Assembly: GCA_965198225.1 (NCBI GenBank)
Contig: CBDAOY010000008.1
Location: 128,001-192,000, forward strand
Reading direction: 5' to 3'
Length of the DNA: 64,000 bases
DNA from: Terriglobia bacterium
Lineage (GTDB): Bacteria; Acidobacteriota; Terriglobia; 20CM-2-55-15
In this document: positions 592 through 36,201 of the stretch, piece after piece
How positions within the stretch are numbered: the first letter of the stretch is position 1
Layout of the letters: every line of letters starts with the position of its first letter
Translations under genes and position numbers: made by a program
The notes under the pieces: generated by a model
Told to the model about the DNA's origin: nothing
What the model saw: only the letters and a program-made list of their open reading frames with translations
Databases searched by the model: none

Positions 592-3225
592 CTATGGCAC
601 CGGCACCCGTTCCTTCAGTTCTTCAAACCAGTTGAGGACTATGTTGATTTGGGGTTCATCCGTTTCCGGCTGTTCCGCTGGAAAGACCATCAGGAATTGT
701 TTGCCATCAGGCGTGATGTCGTAGTTTCTATAAGTGCCAACTACGAGAAACCCTTGTATTGGAAGTGGCTGCTCATTTCCAAATCCAAAAGCACCATCGG
801 TTGAAACGGCCACGCCCGTTATTCCTACCCTCCGCCTGCTCGCGCCAGCGGCCCGGTAGAACAGCTCGCTTCCGTCCGGCGACCACAGTGGGAATAAACC
901 TATATCCTGCGTAATCTGATGCCTTGCCGTTGTCGCGGGAAACGGCTGTACGAAAACCTGCCGAGATTGCCCCCCTTCACTCGAATAGTAGGCAAGCCAC
1001 TTCCCATCCGGTGAGAATAAGGAACCAAGCTCGATGGATTGTGGTAGGTCATAAAAGACTTCTGGGGTGGACCCACCATCAAGCGATAGCGTCCATATAC
1101 CGTAATCTCCGTCACGTTGTACGGCGAATGAAAGAACGTTCCCATCGGGGGACCATGATTCCGGTAAATGGCTGGTTCCTTCTTCGGCGGTAGTCAGCCG
1201 TTCGGCGCCCCCGCTTCCATCTGCTGGTTGCCACCAAATGCTCGTGCTTCCATCTCTGTCTGAAGCGAACGTAATACGTTTACTATCAGGCGTCCATATG
1301 GGTCGGCTGTTGTTGCCTTCTTGCGTTAGCTGCCGAATCGACGTGTCACCAGACACATCGTAAACCCAGATGTCGTTTTGCCCATCGTCTTCAAGTGTTT
1401 GGACCGCAAGCTGCATCCCACCCGGCGACAGGCGGGGACTCAAATACGGGGCGGGCCGCACGTTGAGGCGTTCCACCTCGCCGCTACGGTCTACGAGGGC
1501 AAGAATACGGTCGGTGGTGCCCAAGACAGAACCCACAACATAAACAAGCGAGCCACGGTCGGAAAAACCATAATTCGCAGTGCCCGTGACAGCGGTCCGC
1601 CGAACACCTTCAACAATTGGAACTGGTCCGCCCAACACTTCAAGACTGCCCACGTCAAACGGGGCAGCAAGAAGTACGTCTGCTAACGCATAAACGAGGT
1701 GGCTGGTCGCCACATAACGAGCATCGCTGCCACCTTCGATCAGCGTCCTACGCTTGCCCGTGTCCAGCGACTGCACGACAATGTGGGCCTCGTCCCACCG
1801 GGTTCCACCGCTCGTGGTTGCCAGCGTAAACAGCACCGATTCCCCATCTGGCAACATCTGGGGACCCTGAACTTGCTCCGGCGGCTCGGTTTCAACCAGC
1901 AATTCTGGCGTGCCTCCGTTGGCGGAAACACGCGTGATGCCTTCGGGCTGGCCAAACAGAATGGTGTCATCTTCGCCCCAACTCGGACCGAAGGTAGGAC
2001 CAGAGATATCGCACAGGACGACTGGCGCTCCGCCGCTGATAGAAATCCTCTTCAACTGTTGGTCGGTAACAGACCCGTAACCAACCCATTGTCCGTCCGG
2101 AGAGAAGAACGGCTCGGCTGGGTCGTCATCGGTTCCCGGAATGGGATGCGCCTCCAACTCACCCATCGAGCGGGAATAGAGTTGTCCGTTTGCGACATAA
2201 ACGAATTGACTACCGTCGGGCGACACGGCGAGAAGAGAAGCGGCTGTGCGTGTGAATCGTTGGTCCTCGGGCAGGTCGTAATCAAAGCGGGTGATGATAC
2301 GGGGTTCGGATGGCTTCACATTCCAGACTGCTACACCAACGATGATCGCGCTGATAACGGCGGTAGCTGCGATCCATCGGAGCATCGGTCGTGGCGGTGC
2401 CTGAATAACATCGGCGCCGGGCTGCACAAACAGGCCATCTGGGTCTGACAGCAACTGCTCCACCTCGACCCGCACATCCCCGACAGCCTGCCAGCGGTTC
2501 TTGGGCTCCTTTTCCAGACACCTACGTAACAATTCCTGAATCCGGGGATTGATATTGACCGGCAGGAGCGTGAAGTCGGCGTCCTTTGCAACCGCGGCAG
2601 CGATCATGTCCGTTACCGTCGGTCCTGCCCATGTCTGGCGTCCCGTCAGCATCTCGTACAGGACACACCCAAAGGCCCATACATCGGCCCTCTTATCGAC
2701 TTCCTGCCCTCGGGCCTACTCAGGGCTCATGTACGCCGCTGTTCCGAGGATCATTCCCTGCTGAGTTGCCGCCATGCTCAAGGTCGGTGACTGCGAAAGA
2801 TTCACATCCGACCCATCCCCCGCAAACGCCTTCGCCAGACCAAAATCGAGAACCTTCACCTTGCCATCCGGCGTGACCTTGATGTTTGCGGGCTTCAGAT
2901 CACGATGGATGACACCTTTTTCATGCGCAGCTTCGAGGGCCTCGGCGATCTGGAGGGCGAGCTTGAGGGACTCCTCTACCGTGATAGCACCCCTCTTCAA
3001 CCGATCCGCCAACGTGTCGCCTTCCACGAGTTCAAGGACGAGGAAGCGTGTGCCGTTATCTTCTTCCAGCCCGTAGATGGCGGCGATGTTCGGATGGTTC
3101 AGTGATGCCAGCAGCTTCGCTTCACGCCCGAGCTTGGTGTCCCGCGCACGCCAGACTTCTCCCATTCCGCCGTTGCCGAGCGGGGAGAGGATCTCGTAGC
3201 TGCCGAGTTGGGTGCCGGGGTTCAT
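592..3225 (-). pseudogene. Ser/Thr protein kinase + TM + PD40/TolB-like beta-propellers, inactivated
   Basis: HRDLKPANI, DFG and YMSPE motifs are present. An in-frame TAG at 2716-2718 replaces the Gln of the intact paralog, and the VAIK...FERE segment (23 aa) is missing. ORF 592..2652 continues in the same frame and ends NWFEELKERVPVP. Confidence 0.88.
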
Positions 3226-28838: not shown

Positions 28839-30431
28839 ATGAGTAAACCGAGGCTTCACCACGACCGCAACGCGACCGGGGAGACCGGTCGGCCCCAGGA
28901 CCAGGAGGTTTCCCGCCGCTGGTTCCTCAATCGCATGGCCTGGGTCTCATCGGCGACGGCAACAGGCACACTCCTGGCGAAGATCCCGGCCACCGCCAGC
29001 CCGCGAGGGGCCGGCGTCACCGAAGAAGCCTTCGCGTCCTCCGTGCGCCCCCAGGCGCTGGACGATCTCACCGAGCTGACGCTGTCGGAGACGATGTCGC
29101 TCGTTCGGAACGGGACGCTCGTTCCGGCCGATCTCGTCAATGCCTATGTGGACCGGATTGAGGCCTACGACGAAATCTACCAGGCCTACGCGGCCCGGCC
29201 AGCACGCGAAGATCTGCTCGCTCAGGCTGAGCGAATCCCTGCCGGCGGCATCAACTCCCTTCTGCGCGGGACCTGTTTCACTCCGAAGGATAATTTCTAC
29301 ACCGCGGACCTGCTGACCGAGGGAGGTTCACTGGTCTTCGAAGGCTTCCAGCCCGACTACGACGCGACCGTTGTTTCGCTGGTTCGCGCGGCCGGCGGAC
29401 TGGTGGTGGGTAAGGCTCAGATGGGGAACCTGGCCGGTGGACGTGCCCGCCGGTATGGCACGACGATTCCCACGACGCGAAACGCCTGGGCGCCAAACCA
29501 CCCGGACTACAGCCCCGCCGGGTCTTCTTCAGGGACCGGCACCGCGGTCGCGGCGCGCCTGGCGGTTGTGGGCGTCGGCACGCAAACAGGTGGGTCGGTG
29601 ATCGGTCCGGGCAACGCCCAGGGACTCACGTGCATCAAGCCGACGTTCGGCCGCATCTCGCTTCACGGGGTCATCCCACTGAGCCTGACCCGGGACCACG
29701 TCGGTCCGATGGCGCGCGATGCCTTGGACGCGGCAATCCTGCTCCAGGTACTCGCCAAGCCCGATCCGCACGATCCCCGGACCCTCGGGCTGCCCGCCCC
29801 TCCAAACTACGCCCTGGCCGCTACACCGTTCGGCGGAGAACGCCCACGGGTGCGATGGCCCACCCGGATCGGCATCTGGCCGGAATACCTGTCCGACGAC
29901 AACGAGCGCGTGAACGAGCTGCGCCGCACCTTCATCGCTGAGCTGGAGCAGAATCCGTCGGTCGAGGTCGTGCCCGACGTCACGCTGCCCGAGGAGTGGG
30001 AGGAGCTGACGTCGAGCCCGCTCGGCGGATCGCACGGGGACCCGACTGCCTTCTTCATCGAGCATCTCCGGAAGGACGTGAGGAACTTCGCCGACCGGCT
30101 GCCGCGGTTCCTGAACGGCATGCTGCAGAGCGCCGATACTTACGTGAAGGTCCAGCAGGCCCGTCACCTGCTCCTGCACCGGATGCTCACCCAGCTCTTC
30201 AACCAGTGTGACGTGGTGCTGACGAGATCGACCGGTCCTTTCGACGGGACCGGACTGCCTGTGATGTGCATGCCGATCGGTTTCGACACGGATGAAGACA
30301 GCGGCCGAAGGGTTCCCCGGGGTGTGGTGATGGCCGCGCCGCCGTTCGGTGAGGAAAGGCTCCTGGCAGTCGCGGCGGCCTACCAGGCCGTCACCGACTT
30401 CCACCGCGAGCGGCCCGAGGATCCAGTGTAG
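28839..30431 (+). CDS. Amidase-signature enzyme with Tat signal
   Basis: SRRWFL, PKDN (Lys), GSSSG, GTQTGGS, KPTFGRIS and DHVGPMAR. Confidence 0.9.
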   Translation: MSKPRLHHDRNATGETGRPQDQEVSRRWFLNRMAWVSSATATGTLLAKIPATASPRGAGVTEEAFASSVRPQALDDLTELTLSETMSLVRNGTLVPADLVNAYVDRIEAYDEIYQAYAARPAREDLLAQAERIPAGGINSLLRGTCFTPKDNFYTADLLTEGGSLVFEGFQPDYDATVVSLVRAAGGLVVGKAQMGNLAGGRARRYGTTIPTTRNAWAPNHPDYSPAGSSSGTGTAVAARLAVVGVGTQTGGSVIGPGNAQGLTCIKPTFGRISLHGVIPLSLTRDHVGPMARDALDAAILLQVLAKPDPHDPRTLGLPAPPNYALAATPFGGERPRVRWPTRIGIWPEYLSDDNERVNELRRTFIAELEQNPSVEVVPDVTLPEEWEELTSSPLGGSHGDPTAFFIEHLRKDVRNFADRLPRFLNGMLQSADTYVKVQQARHLLLHRMLTQLFNQCDVVLTRSTGPFDGTGLPVMCMPIGFDTDEDSGRRVPRGVVMAAPPFGEERLLAVAAAYQAVTDFHRERPEDPV

Positions 30432-30521
30432 GGAGCGACATTCCGTGCAAGCTCTACCACGGCATCCAAATCCGAAACTCCGCGTTTTCGGGCGCGAGAA
30501 CTTATTCCGACCCCATCTTTT

Positions 30522-30625
30522 GTGTAGGTGCGGTCTATGACCGCACGTTCTTCGAATGGCGACGATGTGCGCTCATAGAGCGCACCTACACCCCATCCTG
30601 ATGTCCGGCATAGACCGCACCTACA
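30522..30625. repeat. REP doublet plus half copy
   Basis: Doublet at 30522-30591 and a partial CATAGACCGCACCTACA at 30609-30625. Confidence 0.85.
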
Positions 30626-30695
30626 ATTTCCTGAAAACTCTCGCCTTCCGGGGGGAGCAACAACGGCTCGTGAGAAATGCGGGCTATGAGGTCCG

Positions 30696-33047
30696 TCAGC
30701 GCATGGATTCAGCCGAGAGCCGGACCGAGCAGTAGTGCGTGCCTGGCAGCACGCGTTTCCGGCGGGTTAAAGTCCCGCTCGGCCCGAGGCCACGGGTCGA
30801 TATCCAACAAGTGGGGGTAATGCCTCACTGGCCGAAGTGTAGACAGGTAGTGCAGATGCCTAAACGGGCACGAAGGCGAAAGCCGGATACGGCCAAGGCA
30901 AAGCTGGAGCCAGCTACGGAAACTTTGGAGGGCAGGGCGCCCACCGCGAGGTGGGGTCTGAAGGGCATGAGGAGAACCACCGGGTCGTAATCGACGGGAG
31001 CCATCCCGAGGATGAACCGGTCGGCCAAAGATGGGGAATGGTCGAGCCCGCACTATTGGGGCGAAGGCGCATTGGTTCCACCCCATCGCACCAAGGTGTG
31101 TGCGGGCGACACGGTGGAGAAGAGACGCGAGTGACCCAGGGAGGCCTGGTATCGTCCGGGCGGAAGGTAAGGTCGAGATGATGTGGCACCCGCAGACGAA
31201 AGGGCGGGCAACCGAGAAGACAAACATCGACCTAGAGCCCTGCGCGGTAGGTGCGGATATAAGCGAGAGCGAAATTCCGGCCATCAGGAATCGGATCGGG
31301 GAATAGTGCGTGCCTGGCAGCACGCGTTTCCGGCGGGTTAAAGTCCCGCTCGGCCCGAGGCCACGGGTCGATATCCAACAAGTGGGGGTAATGCCTTGGC
31401 CGAAGTGTAGACAGGTAGTGCAGATGCCTAAACGGGCACGAAGGCGAAAGCCGGATACGAGGCAAAGCTGGAGCCAGCTACGGAAACTTTGGAGGGCAGG
31501 GCGCCCACCCGAGTCTGAAGGGCATGAGGAGAACCACCGGGTCGTAATCGACGGGAGCCATCCCGAGGATGACCGGTCGGCCGTCGAGCCCGCTATTGGG
31601 GCGCGCATTGGATCGCACCAAGGTGTGTGCGGGCGACGGTGGAGAAGAGACGCGAGTGACCCGGCCTGGTATCGTCCGGGCGGAAGGTAAGGTCGAGATG
31701 ATGGCACCCGCAGACGAAAGGGCGGGCAACCGGATCGACCTAGAGCCCTGCGCGGTAGGTGCGGATATAAGCGAGAGGAAATTCCGGCCGACGCGGTGTC
31801 AGGAATCGGATCGGGGAATAGTACTCAGGAACGAGACGGCAAACATCCAAAAGGCCCGTTGGAGGGGGAAGTCCCCGTACTCGTGAATGTGCGAGCGATG
31901 GGAAACGCGGAGATATCGTGGAACTTGGATAGTTCCCTTCGCGGTACGAACGAAGCCGAGCCACACAGCGGCAACTGAGGAAAGCGCTTGCGGGAAAACC
32001 GCACGAGCCGTTTGATTGAGCGGACGGTGGAAGGGCCGCGGGACCACTTTCGACTCTACACTCAGGAACGAGACGGCAAACATAAGGTCTCGGATCGTGC
32101 TTCGAGCAGCGGCGCTGGCGGGTCCAAAAGGCCCGTTGGAGGGGGAAGTCCCCGTACTCAGTCGTGAATGTGCGAGCGATGGGAAACGCGGAGATATCGT
32201 GGAATTGGATAGTTCCCTTAGCGAAAGACCCAAACGCGGTACGAACGAAGCCGCCACCTGCCGCCACACAGCGAATTCCGAACGAGGAGCAACTGAGGAA
32301 AGCGGCTTGCGGGAAAACCGCACGAGCCGTTTGATTGAGCGGACGGTGGAAGGGCCGATCGGCCCGACCACTTTCGACTCTACAGGCGAGCCCGATGACC
32401 GAGATGAGCCCGGCGAGGAGCGTCAGGCTATAGGCACCTGCCAGCCCGATGACGCCAAGCGACAGCATTCCGGCGATCAGGAACGATGGGGCGGAGTAGA
32501 GGAAGTGACTGGACCAGATCTCAATCATCGACAGTCCTTCGGTCAACGCGACGATCAGTGACACGGAGATCGAGTTACAAAGGAAATACACGAACGACGC
32601 GAACACGGTGGCCGTCATCTGGGCCGACATCGTTGCCAGCGGGAGCGCACCGGAGAGCAGGTGGTACGTCCACCACGTCAGTAGCACGGTCATTGCGATC
32701 ATCCCCGTATTGAAAACCCACTGGTGCAGGACGAGTCGTTTCGATGGCAGAAACGTTTGAACCGTGACTCCGAAAACCGCCACGAGTACGGCAACTGCCG
32801 GACCCTCGCTGATGACTGCAAGAAGGACCACTGCGGTCAGGAAGGAAATTGAACTGTTCCGGAAGAGGTTCACTTTCGACCGGGCGCCGAGGACGGCGAC
32901 CGTCAGCAGCAAGAGCACCCGGATCGGCGTGATGGTCGGTTGGAGCGCCAGCGAGAAGAGCCCCGCTGCAATTCCGACGGCGCCGAACAGGCCAATCGTC
33001 CACTTGGCCGCCAGCGAAAGCTCTTGAAATCGGGTTTGGGAGTACAC
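30696..33047 (-). CDS. Multi-TM membrane sensor-like protein (MASE9-like), interrupted near its 3' end by an antisense group II twintron
   Basis: Joining 33047-32384 to 30736-30696 gives 234 aa ending ...VIGLAYYCSVRLSAESMR*. The tail of ORF-track ORF 31740..33047 is antisense intron sequence. Confidence 0.7.
30737..32383 (+). mobile_element. ORF-less group II intron, outer copy (895 nt without the inner copy)
   Basis: 5' end GCGTG; EBS1 ACTATT (31052-31057); DIII-like CGGGGAATAGT|AC...GAAGTCCCCG; D5 AAGCGGCTTGCGGGAAAACCGCACGAGCCGTTT; D6 ending TTTCGACTCTAC. About 140 nt of DIV with no RT ORF. Confidence 0.9.
31308..32059 (+). mobile_element. ORF-less group II intron, inner nested copy (752 nt)
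   Basis: A second GCGTGCCTGGCAGCACG start and a second D5/D6 ending CGACTCTAC; colinear with the outer copy but with many short deletions. Confidence 0.88.
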
Positions 33048-33350
33048 TTACGGTCCTTCCGTTCAAACTTAGTTGAGACCCGGCAACGGCGAAAATACAC
33101 CTGATGGGGCGGCAACGCCGGTGACGCCCGCCAGACGATTCCCTCCGCTTCAGAGTATCTATCGACAGGAATCAGTGATTACTTTAGGGTTTTTGGGCGG
33201 GTAACTGCATTTTTTGGAAGGAATTGCGGTGGAAAGTGGACTGGCGTGGTTCGCGGACATTTTTCCCGATAGCAGAAACTATTCGCGAAGTTTTTGCACT
33301 ATGGTTGAAATCGCCCGCGCTTTCGATCAGCGCCGACCAGGCGGCCCCCT

Positions 33351-36201
33351 CTACTGCGGCATCAGCGTCACCCGGACATAGTTCTCAATGTCGAAGTGTT
33401 TGCGGGCTGTCTCCCGGATCGATGCCGGGGTGAGGGCTTCGACCGACGCCGGGTAGGAGCGAATGCTGGCGCCGGGCGCTTCGCCCCGTTGATAGTCGAA
33501 GACGAGCTGGCTCAACAGGGTCCGGTTCTCCTGAAAGTCGGTTTCGAAGGATCGAAGCAGCGCTTCGCGTGTATCGGAAACCTCCTGTTCCGTGGGCCCT
33601 GAAGCCTTTAGCGCTTCAATTCCATCGAAGACGGTTCCCACGAGCTCCTCCGTTCGTTCGGGGTCGGACCCGAAGGTGATGATCAGTCGGTAGGTCTCCT
33701 CGGGGCGCCAGGAGTAACTGGCTCCCACACTGATGCTGTAGGTGCCGCCCAACTCCTCCCGGACCCGGTCGCGGAGTTGCGATTGCAGTGTCATCGCCAT
33801 CGCGCGGAGGCCAGTTCTCGCTGCCTGGTTCTGGTAATCGAAGGAGCCGGTAAACGCGATTCGCGTCTGACTGCGGGGCTCGATTCCCCTCGACACCGTC
33901 TCCTCGACGACGCCCCTGGGGGCCCGGACACCGATGTCCCGCCACGTTTCTTCTCTGTCGGTTGTCGGCAGACCGCCCAGGTAGCGCTCGACATAAGGCC
34001 GCATCGCGTCCTGATCGAGGCTGCCGACGAAGATGAACGTAAAGTCATCCGCATCGGCAAAACGGTCCCGGTAGAAGGCGAGGGACTCTTGGAGGTCGGC
34101 CTCGTCCAGCGTTTCGACTGTAGGGGTCCGCTCACGTGGATGGTCCTGTGTCATGATGCGGTTGTAGGCGTCACTGAATGCGGCCGCCGGATTCCGGTCT
34201 CGATTTGCGATGGCTTGCCGGTTCTGTGTCTTCCACACCTCGTAGAGCGTGTCGTCGGCCCGCGGGGCGGTAAACCTCAGGTAGATCAACTGGAACAGAG
34301 TCTCCAGATCCGCGGGCGAGCCGTTGCCGCTCACACCTTCCTCGAATGTCGAGATGAACGGTCGAACGTTGGCAACCTTGCCCGCAAGCAGCTTGTCGAG
34401 GTCGATCCCGTTCAGCTGTCCGACACCGCCAGCCGGAATCAGCGAAGAGGCGGTACTTCCAGGAATGTAATCTTCATCGCTGGCGAGCGACGTGCCTCCG
34501 GGACTGAAACCTCGGAACACGATGCGGTCTTCGTCGAAGTCGGTCGGCTTCAGCACTACGCGGACACCGTTCGCCAGGGTCCACTCGGTAATGTCCCCTT
34601 CGAGTGTTTCGGTACTGACGATTTCGGAGCCCTCGGGCATTTCGGCAAGGAGCGGCTGATCGGAAACCGTGTCCACGTATGCCGTTATCTCGGTGTCACC
34701 TGTGTCCAGGACCGCCAGCAGGGCCTCTTCGGAGGGCATCGCCAGTTCTTCCTTTTCCGGGCCGGCGACAAGAACGACCCGGTTGGAATCCTGGATCCAG
34801 TCCCGACCCACCCGGTTCACCTCGTCGATCGTGATCTGGGGGACGAAGCGCTTGTAGAGTTCGAATTCGTATGCGATGCCGGGAATCGACTCGCCGTCGA
34901 GGAAAGCACGGATGTACTCCGAGGCGTACGATCGCGACTCGCGGTTCGCCCGGTTGATGTAGGAACGCTCTATGCGACGAAGGACGCTCGTCCTCTGGCG
35001 CTCCAGCTCCGACGGGGTGAAGCCGAAGCGAGCGACGCGCTCGGCCTCGGTGGACAGGGCACCGAGTCCCCGCTCGGCTCCGTCCTCGAGCACCCCGGCC
35101 GTCAGCGCATAGACACCCTTCGAACGGATGAGCTGACCCTGGGCCGACGATGCTCTCAGGAACGGCGGGTCGGGCTGCCTGGCGAGCTCCGCAAAGCGAT
35201 CGTTGAGCATACCGTTGTAGAGGCTCTCGACAATCCGCTGCCGGTACCCGGCGATCGTCCAATCGTCCTCGACGTCCATTTTGTGGTAGACGGACACCGT
35301 GGTGGAGGAAATCTCCGGATCAGTCACGATTGAAAAGAGAGTTTCGTCGTGGTCCGGAACGGGATAAACGCTGCGCTCGCGGGGGTTTGAGGGGATCGGC
35401 AGACCCTCGAAGTGCTGCCGGGTGAGAGCCTCGACGCTTGACGCGTCGAAATCGCCGACCGCGATGACCGCCATGAGGTCGGGCCGATACCAGTCGCGGT
35501 AGAAACGCCGAACTGCATCGTGGTCGAAACTCCGCAGGCTCTCCAGCGTGCCGATCGGGAGGCGCTCGGCGTAGTGCGAGTCACTGAAGATGACTGGAAA
35601 CTGCTGGTCGCGCAGCCTTGCCGCGGCGCCCTGACCGAGTCTCCATTCCTTGATGACCACGCCGCGTTCCTGGTCGATCTCCTCCGGATCGAGCGTCAGC
35701 CCGTGAGCCCAGTCCTCCATGATCTGGAACGCTGTGGCCATGTTTTCGGCATTGTCGGTCGGGACTTCGAGCATATAGGTGGTTTCGTCGTAGGAGGTGG
35801 TCGCGTTGACGCCCGGACCGAGGCGCATTCCGATAGATTCCATGAAGTCGACGAGCGCCCCTTTCTCGAAGTGCTCGGTGCCGTTGAAGGCCATGTGCTC
35901 GAGGACGTGGGCCAAGCCGAGCTGGTCGTCGTCTTCGACGATCGACCCGACCCGGACGACGAATCGCAACTCCGCACGGTTTTCGGGCTCCTGGTTCTCG
36001 CGGATGAAGTAACGGAAGCCGTTGGCGAACTCACCAACCGTCACAGCCGGTTCCACCGGCATTTCCTGATCGAGCCCTGCTGTCGCCGCATCTTCAGGAT
36101 CTGCCGGCGACGGCACCTGCTGCGCGCTGAGCCCGGTCGGTGCCGACGCAGCCAGCAAGGCCGTCACAAGTACGAAAACAAGGGTCAGTACGGTCTCTCA
36201 T
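33351..36201 (-). CDS. M16 zinc protease (PqqL-like), apparent frameshift in the first codons
   Basis: AHVLEHMAFNGT, NATTSYDET and RLPIG motifs. An AAGGAG RBS and ATG at 36201 are out of frame with the signal peptide TVLTLVFVLVTALLAA; the GA repeat ATGAGAGACC is the likely slip site. Confidence 0.88.

Follow-up and report, generated by a model that had tools for sequence, protein, structure and literature searches.

A 64,000-nt stretch of a Terriglobia bacterium genome, referred to here as the window, carries on its + strand at 30737-32383 a group II intron that is interrupted by a second copy of itself. The source genome is labelled G000 (9 contigs, 6.4 Mb), the intron family is named C in this work, and C4 to C9 followed by coordinates denote contigs of G000. 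It is likely that the element is a real twintron of C within C, that its reverse transcriptase (RT) acts in trans, that the family targets the internal loop of domain III of group II introns, and that the outer copy in the window occupies an off-target site. G000 has 20 C 5' junctions; other group II introns house 14 of them and C itself another 4, and all 18 read (A/G)UA(G/A)U|A. The domain III motif proposed in the preliminary description of this DNA as a homing site in other introns and in the intron itself is thus found across the family.

Architecture of the nested element

The reference for canonical positions is a C copy of 904 nt. On the + strand, the first 571 nt of the element (30737-31307) are followed by a 752-nt copy of the whole element (31308-32059) and then by its last 324 nt (32060-32383), which is the order of 5' half, complete copy and 3' half first reported for this DNA. 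A repeat scan of 30000-33500 gave 13 direct-repeat families, every one of them made of co-linear blocks that pair 30737-31307 and 32060-32383 with 31308-32059, and the two copies share long blocks of 100% identity separated by small gaps only. The uninterrupted site GGGGAATAGT|ACTCAGG is kept in the inner copy at 31813-31829, and the outer halves carry the same letters at the inner junctions (ending at 31298-31307 and resuming at 32060-32066). Excision of the inner copy in silico restores the outer site GGGGAAUAGU|ACUCAGG, so that the intact inner site and its exact restoration, both claimed earlier, can be read directly from the DNA. The boundaries of the insert are uniquely GCGTG...CTCTAC; when the boundary is moved 2 nt to a canonical GTGCG start (30735), the site is not restored. 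Once joined, the outer halves can be aligned over their whole length with single copies, from which they are 3 deletion events apart, as expected of a twintron.

The outer 5' part (30737-31307, +) begins with GCGUG, contains domains I and II and stops within domain III, of whose 5' strand it holds the portion up to AUAGU; it equals canonical positions 1-579 minus one 8-nt deletion. The outer 3' part (32060-32383, +) begins with the A of the AUAGUA loop and contains the remaining domain III, a domain IV without an open reading frame (ORF), D5, D6 and the end ...CUAC. The inner copy (31308-32059, +) is complete at both ends and has 24 internal deletions. The AUAGUA loop of its own domain III (31818-31823, +) is intact, and the site for any further insertion is 31822|31823.

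Group II identity and the source of the reverse transcriptase

No Rfam match reaches its gathering score anywhere in the 64-kb window; the D5-D6 matches appear only in E-value mode (RF00029, gathering score 40). The outer D5-D6 (32298-32383, +) matches the full-length RF00029 model (36.9 bits, E 4.7e-5) and shows the group II features of an AGC triad, a GAAA loop and, 7 nt before its 3' terminus, a bulged A. In the inner D5-D6 (31980-32059, +), where a deletion disrupts one helix pair, the match scores 28.4 bits (E 0.0054). A weak match to RF02001 (D1D4-3) lies at 30940-31047 (24.5 bits). Of the group II end rules GUGYG and AY, the 3' end agrees (AC) and the 5' end (GCGUG) does not.

G000 holds about 20 C copies (20 5' ends and 21 3' ends), most of them 904 nt long and mutually 98-100% identical. 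Two full-length copies of 2.15 kb, C5:501714-503866 and C6:343788-345941, align with short C as far as position 795, then once more from a point shortly before D5 to the 3' end. Between these parts lies a 475-aa ORF with RVT_1 (2.8e-33) and GIIM (1.5e-19) matches, which stops after the maturase domain and has no endonuclease part. Its position is that of the deletion in domain IV of short C, and short C is therefore read as an ORF-deletion derivative. The D5/D6 matches together with this RT/maturase ORF in domain IV of full-length relatives support the identification of the element as a group II intron. Neither window copy encodes an RT, as had been pointed out; the two intact ORFs are the RT-encoding relatives that had been suggested as a follow-up search, and with them a cognate RT is available from which the short copies would be mobilised in trans.

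The best solved relatives of the C RT are class C (IIC) RTs (7uim, 4.9e-65; 6ar1, 1.4e-62), compared with 4.5e-45 for 6me0 and 1.6e-38 for LtrA. The C RT shares 39% identity with the RT of intron F, a IIC intron of G000. Judged by sequence, then, the C RT is most similar to the IIC RTs. Among 301 sampled genomes of the phylum, 28 have an RT match, and the nearest RT outside G000 is at most 47% identical.

Insertion of family C into other introns and into itself

The hosts of the 14 intron-borne copies are intron B (6 junctions), a B-like chimera (2), intron D (2), the IIC intron F (1), the host of the copy C6_1004 (1) and two hosts without an ORF (2). Rfam D1-D4 matches lie upstream and D5 matches downstream of these copies on the same strand, and RT ORFs follow. 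Besides the 4 junctions in C itself, the remaining two are the outer site in the window and C5:3834, near a contig end, which fits nothing. The C-in-C junctions of G000 (4 on the 5' side and 5 on the 3' side) are all identical, and the same architecture is present at C6:840163-841975 and C5:62160-64012. Apart from C, the genome has 31 maturase-domain matches and 32 RF00029 matches. Its RTs form 11 clusters with 24-38% identity between them, except for one pair at 79%, and the RTs of the introns that host C belong to clusters that are only 26-38% identical. Intron F has 8 copies, in 7 of which the AUAGUA site is empty and in 1 of which it is occupied by C.

The copy of intron F at 1031-3082 of locus L049 (G000 C7:487300-490600) begins with GTGCG and directly follows a tRNA gene and a T-run hairpin, as is classic for IIC introns. 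In locus L050 (G000 C6:838000-844000), at 1720-1800, the D5-D6 of the ORF-containing intron A (RT cluster 3) lies about 10-20 nt before the D1 region of intron B. Such an array of A followed by B is present at at least 5 loci, and B is without a clear GUGYG start.

Several loci hold incomplete nests. C4:150750-152235 consists of a 5' part and a full copy, and C5:812868-814096 of a full copy and a 3' part; further partial nests or tandem partial duplications are found among C5:3834-4942 and C4:97368-98438, with internal tandem duplications in the copies C4_97 and C5_62. To judge from their structure, the partial nests are what would be left by recombination between the direct repeats of a twintron. 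Some loci share a downstream host flank and differ upstream, namely C4:150750 and C5:889958 compared with the B loci, and C8:902508 compared with C5:501714. This pattern suggests exchange between host introns through near-identical C copies.

Domain III as the probable insertion point

The domain map of canonical C is our reading of folds and alignments, in which minimum free energy (MFE) folds of the whole intron were used for local helices only. D5 occupies 819-852 and D6 extends to 904. D4 is closed by CUCAGU (677-682) and ACUGAG (811-816), with the ORF site at 795/796. In D3, CGGGGA (569-574) and UCCCCG form the basal stem, AUAGUA (575-580) is the 5' strand of the loop, and the upper part is branched; C inserts in C at U579|A580. 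The unconstrained local MFE fold of positions 560-682 yields the same CGGGGA/UCCCCG stem and AUAGUA loop. From its position between domain II and domain IV, we take the hairpin with the AUAGUA loop to be domain III.

An empty copy of intron F matches RF01998 at L049:1501-1582 with 41.6 bits (gathering score 35). The consensus of this model, ...gGcCAUAGUAgccgcc...ggcggcGAAGGgC with the structure <<<------<<<<<<...>>>>>>---->>>, shows an internal loop in which CAUAGUA, on the 5' side, faces GAAG. The hairpin with this loop is the last one ahead of the ORF, and the ATG follows 61 nt downstream. The consensus AUAGUA/GAAG loop and the local fold of C agree with the proposal that the insertion point is the internal-loop motif of domain III. 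The label also agrees with the arrangement of the Oceanobacillus iheyensis intron. Plain MFE folding gives the domain III architecture for C, B, F and the host of C6_1004.

Target recognition

Within C, AUAGU has a single perfect complement, ACUAU at canonical 316-320, which falls in a predicted hairpin loop and is therefore proposed as exon-binding site 1 (EBS1); in the outer intron it is found at 31052-31056 (+). ACUAU(U) at 316-321 could pair with 5-6 nt of every target, including both forms of the putative intron-binding site 1 (IBS1), AUAGU and GUAGU. Further upstream, C(A/G)G(A/C) is present at -16..-13 in 19 of the 20 occupied sites, where it corresponds in the hosts to the J2/3 linker, and the same number of sites fit C[AG]G[AC]-N7-RUA[AG]U|. 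G000 contains 1672 RTAGTA sites, and CRGA stands at that offset in only 29, of which 14 are C's own. No IBS2-like conservation was seen at -6..-12 of the C sites.

An insertion mode of the IIC type, after the stem-loop of a terminator or attC site, was considered and rejected. C sits in domain III loops; at all 7 sites for which the 70 nt upstream were folded as DNA, the folds did not surpass those of shuffled sequence (z -1.98 to +1.02), and a promoter and terminator scan of 30300-32600 returned 0 sites of either kind.

The following course of events would account for these observations. As a deletion derivative of an intron of about 2.15 kb that encodes an RT/maturase without an endonuclease domain, C would form ribonucleoproteins (RNPs) with the RT supplied in trans, and these would enter DNA by reverse splicing at (A/G)UAGU|A. 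The ACUAU(U) of domain I is the probable EBS1 partner of IBS1, the A at +1 is probably IBS3, and the C(A/G)GA element 13-16 nt upstream probably aids recognition. The recognised sequence would then be the J2/3 linker and the AUAGUA internal loop of domain III, and C would be found mainly inside other introns and itself because many group II introns carry this combination. In the window, the first event would have been the off-target, antisense landing of one copy close to the 3' end of a MASE9 gene; another copy, closely related to it, would then have entered the domain III loop of the first.

The outer insertion site and its empty allele

The outer intron lies antisense in a gene for a MASE9-domain membrane protein, after codon 221 of 234 and 13 codons before its end. 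The first 221 codons occupy 32384-33047 on the - strand (PF20972, 29.1 bits, E 1.1e-6), and the last 13 codons and the stop, joined in silico, occupy 30696-30736 (-). In the empty-site allele the joined reading frame encodes a MASE9 protein of 234 aa. An ORF of 435 aa at 31740-33047 (-) is this gene reading into the antisense intron and is not a real long protein.

Four sequencing runs were compared as Logan contigs (X1, X2, X3 and X11, the last an RNA library). In X1 and X3, contigs with depths of 18.9 and 4.21, like those of the flanks, join 30736 to 32384 and skip exactly 1647 nt ('GC..AC') with no ambiguity. The insertion is therefore exact and is absent from those populations; there is no target duplication, and in this exactness it behaves as group II insertions do. 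On the 5' exon side the target (30721-30736, +) has CGGA at -16..-13 and GUAGU at -5..-1, and its +1 A is 32384. Letters and spacing agree with those of the domain III targets. The outer copy is an off-target insertion at the look-alike site CGGA-N7-GUAGU|A. That CGGA and GUAGU|A occur together at an occupied site outside an intron is one observation and only suggestive.

The two window copies share a G at canonical 423 and common letters at 99-115, a combination present in no other aligned copy, and are therefore each other's nearest relatives. This relationship fits either re-insertion of the local copy or a common donor.

Upstream of the intron, a 25-nt inverted repeat (92% complementary) of the unit GTAGGTGCGG..ACCGCAC is present at 30522-30591 and at about 30606-30630 of the window. 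A third partial copy lies between an amidase gene and the intron, and the repeat has the look of an intergenic REP-type element.

Condition of the inner copy

Although the inner copy runs from end to end of the element, as the preliminary description held in calling it complete, it is not intact. Relative to canonical C it has 24 deletions of 1-41 nt (153 nt in total), 1 insertion and 0 private substitutions, and microhomology at the deletions amounts to only 0-2 nt. The outer copy has 3 private deletion events (9 nt). The inner deletions remove CA of the EBS1 loop (315-316), a conserved D1 hairpin (210-219), TCAG of the D4 basal stem (679-682) and D5 base 825. The inner copy as assembled is thus probably either dead for splicing or mis-assembled. 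If it cannot splice in this form, the outer intron cannot be restored, and the twintron would most likely be inert. Ordered splicing of the window copy, with the inner intron leaving before the outer one, seems unlikely in view of these losses from EBS1, D5 and the D4 stem.

Copies of this kind are not confined to the window. In families C, F, A and B, some copies show 6-24 gap openings but only 0-7 mismatches relative to the canonical copy. Examples are intron F at C9:335639-337620, C8:1093652-1095623 and C5:717331-718804, the 5' part of B at C5:759703-760139, and 31308-32059 of the window; one copy of intron F has 1 mismatch and 10 gap openings. Candidate causes are consensus errors and faulty synthesis of complementary DNA at insertion. 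Consensus errors would have to be restricted to repeats of high copy number, given that long ORFs nearby are intact. In the second case, copies with many deletions and no substitution could each go back to one faulty retrohoming event, the RT having skipped along an intron RNA template that was nicked.

Reads, other assemblies and relatives

No record in the four runs spans a nested junction with 31 letters on each side, the best being a 55-nt X11 contig with 24 and 25 letters. That the window nesting is uncovered in these runs is neither support nor refutation. Loose contig ends in X2 show the junction sequence of C in intron B, and those in X11 that of C in intron F. X11 holds C-family contigs but none of the unique flanks of the window, and is therefore uninformative on transcription of the locus.

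The 36-nt C-in-C junction is present in one other species-representative genome, on a 16.6-kb contig of another metagenome-assembled genome (MAG; L036, G020:C24). In this contig, an undamaged 904-nt C sits at 579|580 of another C, which is itself inside intron B, and the whole nest is 99.6% identical to G000 C6:839748-843511. G020 belongs to a different genus of the same family, and its C copies (a further one is G020:C9:15698-16602) are 98-100% identical to those of G000. So close a match points to recent transfer or to a mis-binned contig. Among 40 relatives, full C copies were found in G000 and G020 only. A junction pattern search over 19 loci gave 3 matches, 0 of them with a C-type 5' end.

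Weighing the explanations

Several results weigh against the proposed interpretation. Both D5 scores (36.9 for the outer and 28.4 for the inner copy) fall below the Rfam gathering score, and the 5' end is GCGUG, with C at position 2, instead of GUGYG, the canonical GUGCG 2 nt upstream being impossible as a boundary. In the C RT (L032:2323-3750, -, protein P0001), WADD stands where YADD is expected, which makes its activity uncertain. Seven perfect sites in intron F are empty, 15 sites outside introns that carry the extended motif are unoccupied, and plain MFE recovers the domain III architecture at no more than 4 of the 7 host sites, the other 3 not folding in this way. In the four runs, the stretches specific to the inner copy (31368-31751 and 31880-32007) are uncovered, with a best word share of 0.54, and neither the outer 5' junction nor the C-in-C junction has an exact match among the metagenome contigs (0 each). 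The 99.6% identity of the nest in G020 makes that contig an independent assembly and not an independent lineage. Lastly, 24 deletions with no private substitution are unlike ordinary decay.

The last of these points also speaks for a technical explanation, in which a repeat of about 20 copies in a long-read MAG was misassembled or given a wrong consensus, so that the nesting in the window, or at least its unusual inner copy, is artificial and the true locus holds one intron, a clean twintron or nothing. The deletions and single insertion at sites with almost no microhomology, the similarly indel-rich and substitution-poor copies of F, A and B, the empty site in two other samples, and the fact that the 8-nt deletion and a missing T of the outer copy occur in none of the four runs would all suit such an artefact. 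Its chance of being right is nevertheless small. Both outer junctions are exact intron ends at a site that matches the family target at 10 of 10 specified positions, and in the empty allele the two flanks adjoin each other. Such a result is not what a chimeric join would produce, and the inner junctions are exact too. The same architecture recurs at the two further G000 loci and, with an undamaged inner copy, in another MAG, and the long ORFs around the site are intact. An origin of the nested forms by DNA recombination or duplication between intron copies, and not by insertion, is highly improbable. The partial forms at C4:150750-152235 and C5:812868-814096 and the internal tandem duplications in C4_97 and C5_62 would be in its favour, yet a twintron whose direct repeats recombined would leave just such partial forms. 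Homologous recombination cannot make 579-to-1 or 904-to-580 junctions, and the nested junctions are exact intron termini at the family's own target, identical in all 4 and 5 cases.

A further alternative accepts insertion and dispenses with any special recognition of domain III: a short IBS1 of about 5-6 nt would suffice, insertions in genes would be purged while those in introns are harmless, and recombination would spread the copies. The target is indeed short, the six B copies are 100% identical in their flanking parts so that some of the C insertions in B may copy one event, the chimeric flanks (the B-like chimera with B; the host of C8_902 with that of C5_501) show recombination through C copies, and the 7 upstream folds reveal no common DNA hairpin. 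This explanation can be given a modest chance. It has to contend with at least 7 upstream and at least 6 downstream host flanks that always place C at the same loop position and in sense orientation. Domain III sites make up about 3% of the 1672 RTAGTA sites, yet they account for 18 of the 20 junctions, and the sole occupied site outside an intron has CGGA at -16..-13, a combination present at 15 of about 1658 background sites. A C-in-C twintron that arose by insertion into a preferred domain III target is therefore the reading retained here. Its strongest form, in which C is a dedicated, IIC-related parasite of group II introns whose RNP reads CRGA-N7-RUAGU|A (J2/3-domain III) as its homing site, is more doubtful and is put forward tentatively.

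Comparison with known nested introns

In Thermosynechococcus elongatus, ORF-less introns of the TeI3/TeI4 group are moved in trans by the RT of relatives (Mohr, Ghanem & Lambowitz 2010, PMC2882425). As in family C, ORF-less derivatives exist beside ORF-containing relatives, and TeI3i lies inside the ORF-less TeI3h; the T. elongatus site, however, falls within domain IV, with the first ATG of the RT ORF on one side and the second on the other, and the hosts belong to one related family (PMC2882425). C differs in its use of the domain III loop, in its at least 5 host lineages with RTs 26-38% identical, and in an RT closest to IIC. Methanosarcina acetivorans resembles C in repeated site-specific homing into group II introns; its nests are several deep and without coding exons, and copies have been deleted by homologous recombination, which matches the partial C forms (Dai & Zimmerly 2003, via review PMC4424553). 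Its targets differ in lying in intron ORFs, going by the title of Dai & Zimmerly 2003 as cited in that review.

The lycophyte mitochondrial 'zombie' twintron cox1i1149g2 shares with C self-insertion, a degenerate unspliced inner copy and further copies at ectopic sites; it differs in being organellar, in its domain IV insertion with an outer intron that still splices, and, as far as the available text goes, in having no cognate RT (Zumkeller, Gerke & Knoop 2020, PMC7049729). The Trichodesmium twintron is, like that of C, bacterial and has its inner intron in a domain of the catalytic core (domain I), so that sequential splicing is required, and the order of splicing was shown (Pfreundt & Hess 2015, PMC4649490). 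It differs in being a single case of different introns, both containing ORFs, and, as described in the available text, its target is not a motif common to many introns (PMC4649490). Across these four nested cases, insertion sites are given in domain IV or an ORF in three and in domain I in one. IIC introns resemble C in an RT without an endonuclease domain, a very short IBS1 and no evident IBS2 (review PMC4424553). C differs from them in having no terminator or attC hairpin before its sites and a ribozyme of about 880 nt. Class C ribozymes are small, below this size.

Nested homing, ORF-less introns moved in trans, and self-invasion are thus already described, and the novelty is narrower than the preliminary description implied. 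Within the limited collection of literature searched, supplements excluded, no description of homing into the domain III loop was found; the available text of PMC12584367 contains nothing on domain III targets, nor do PMC1865049 and PMC4476101. What is new is the target, a conserved core motif common to divergent intron lineages.

Implications for group II intron biology

The survival of group II introns is usually put down to insertion where little harm is done, for example at terminators or attC sites, in other mobile elements, or in the domain IV of another intron. A family aiming at a conserved core motif would find its target in every genome that holds introns, would make nests that are resolvable only by ordered splicing, and would damp or control the activity of rival introns. 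The target, with about 10 specified bases, is compact and testable, and would allow study of how a ribozyme and an endonuclease-less RT choose a DNA site. The nests, partial forms and chimeric flanks show how such introns reshape genomes by recombination. If C is a dedicated parasite, it could invade almost any group II lineage, including its own, and the host ribozyme would be switched off until C splices out. The domain III loop would then be a fourth type of bacterial group II target beside homing sites, terminators and attC sites (the three listed in review PMC4424553).

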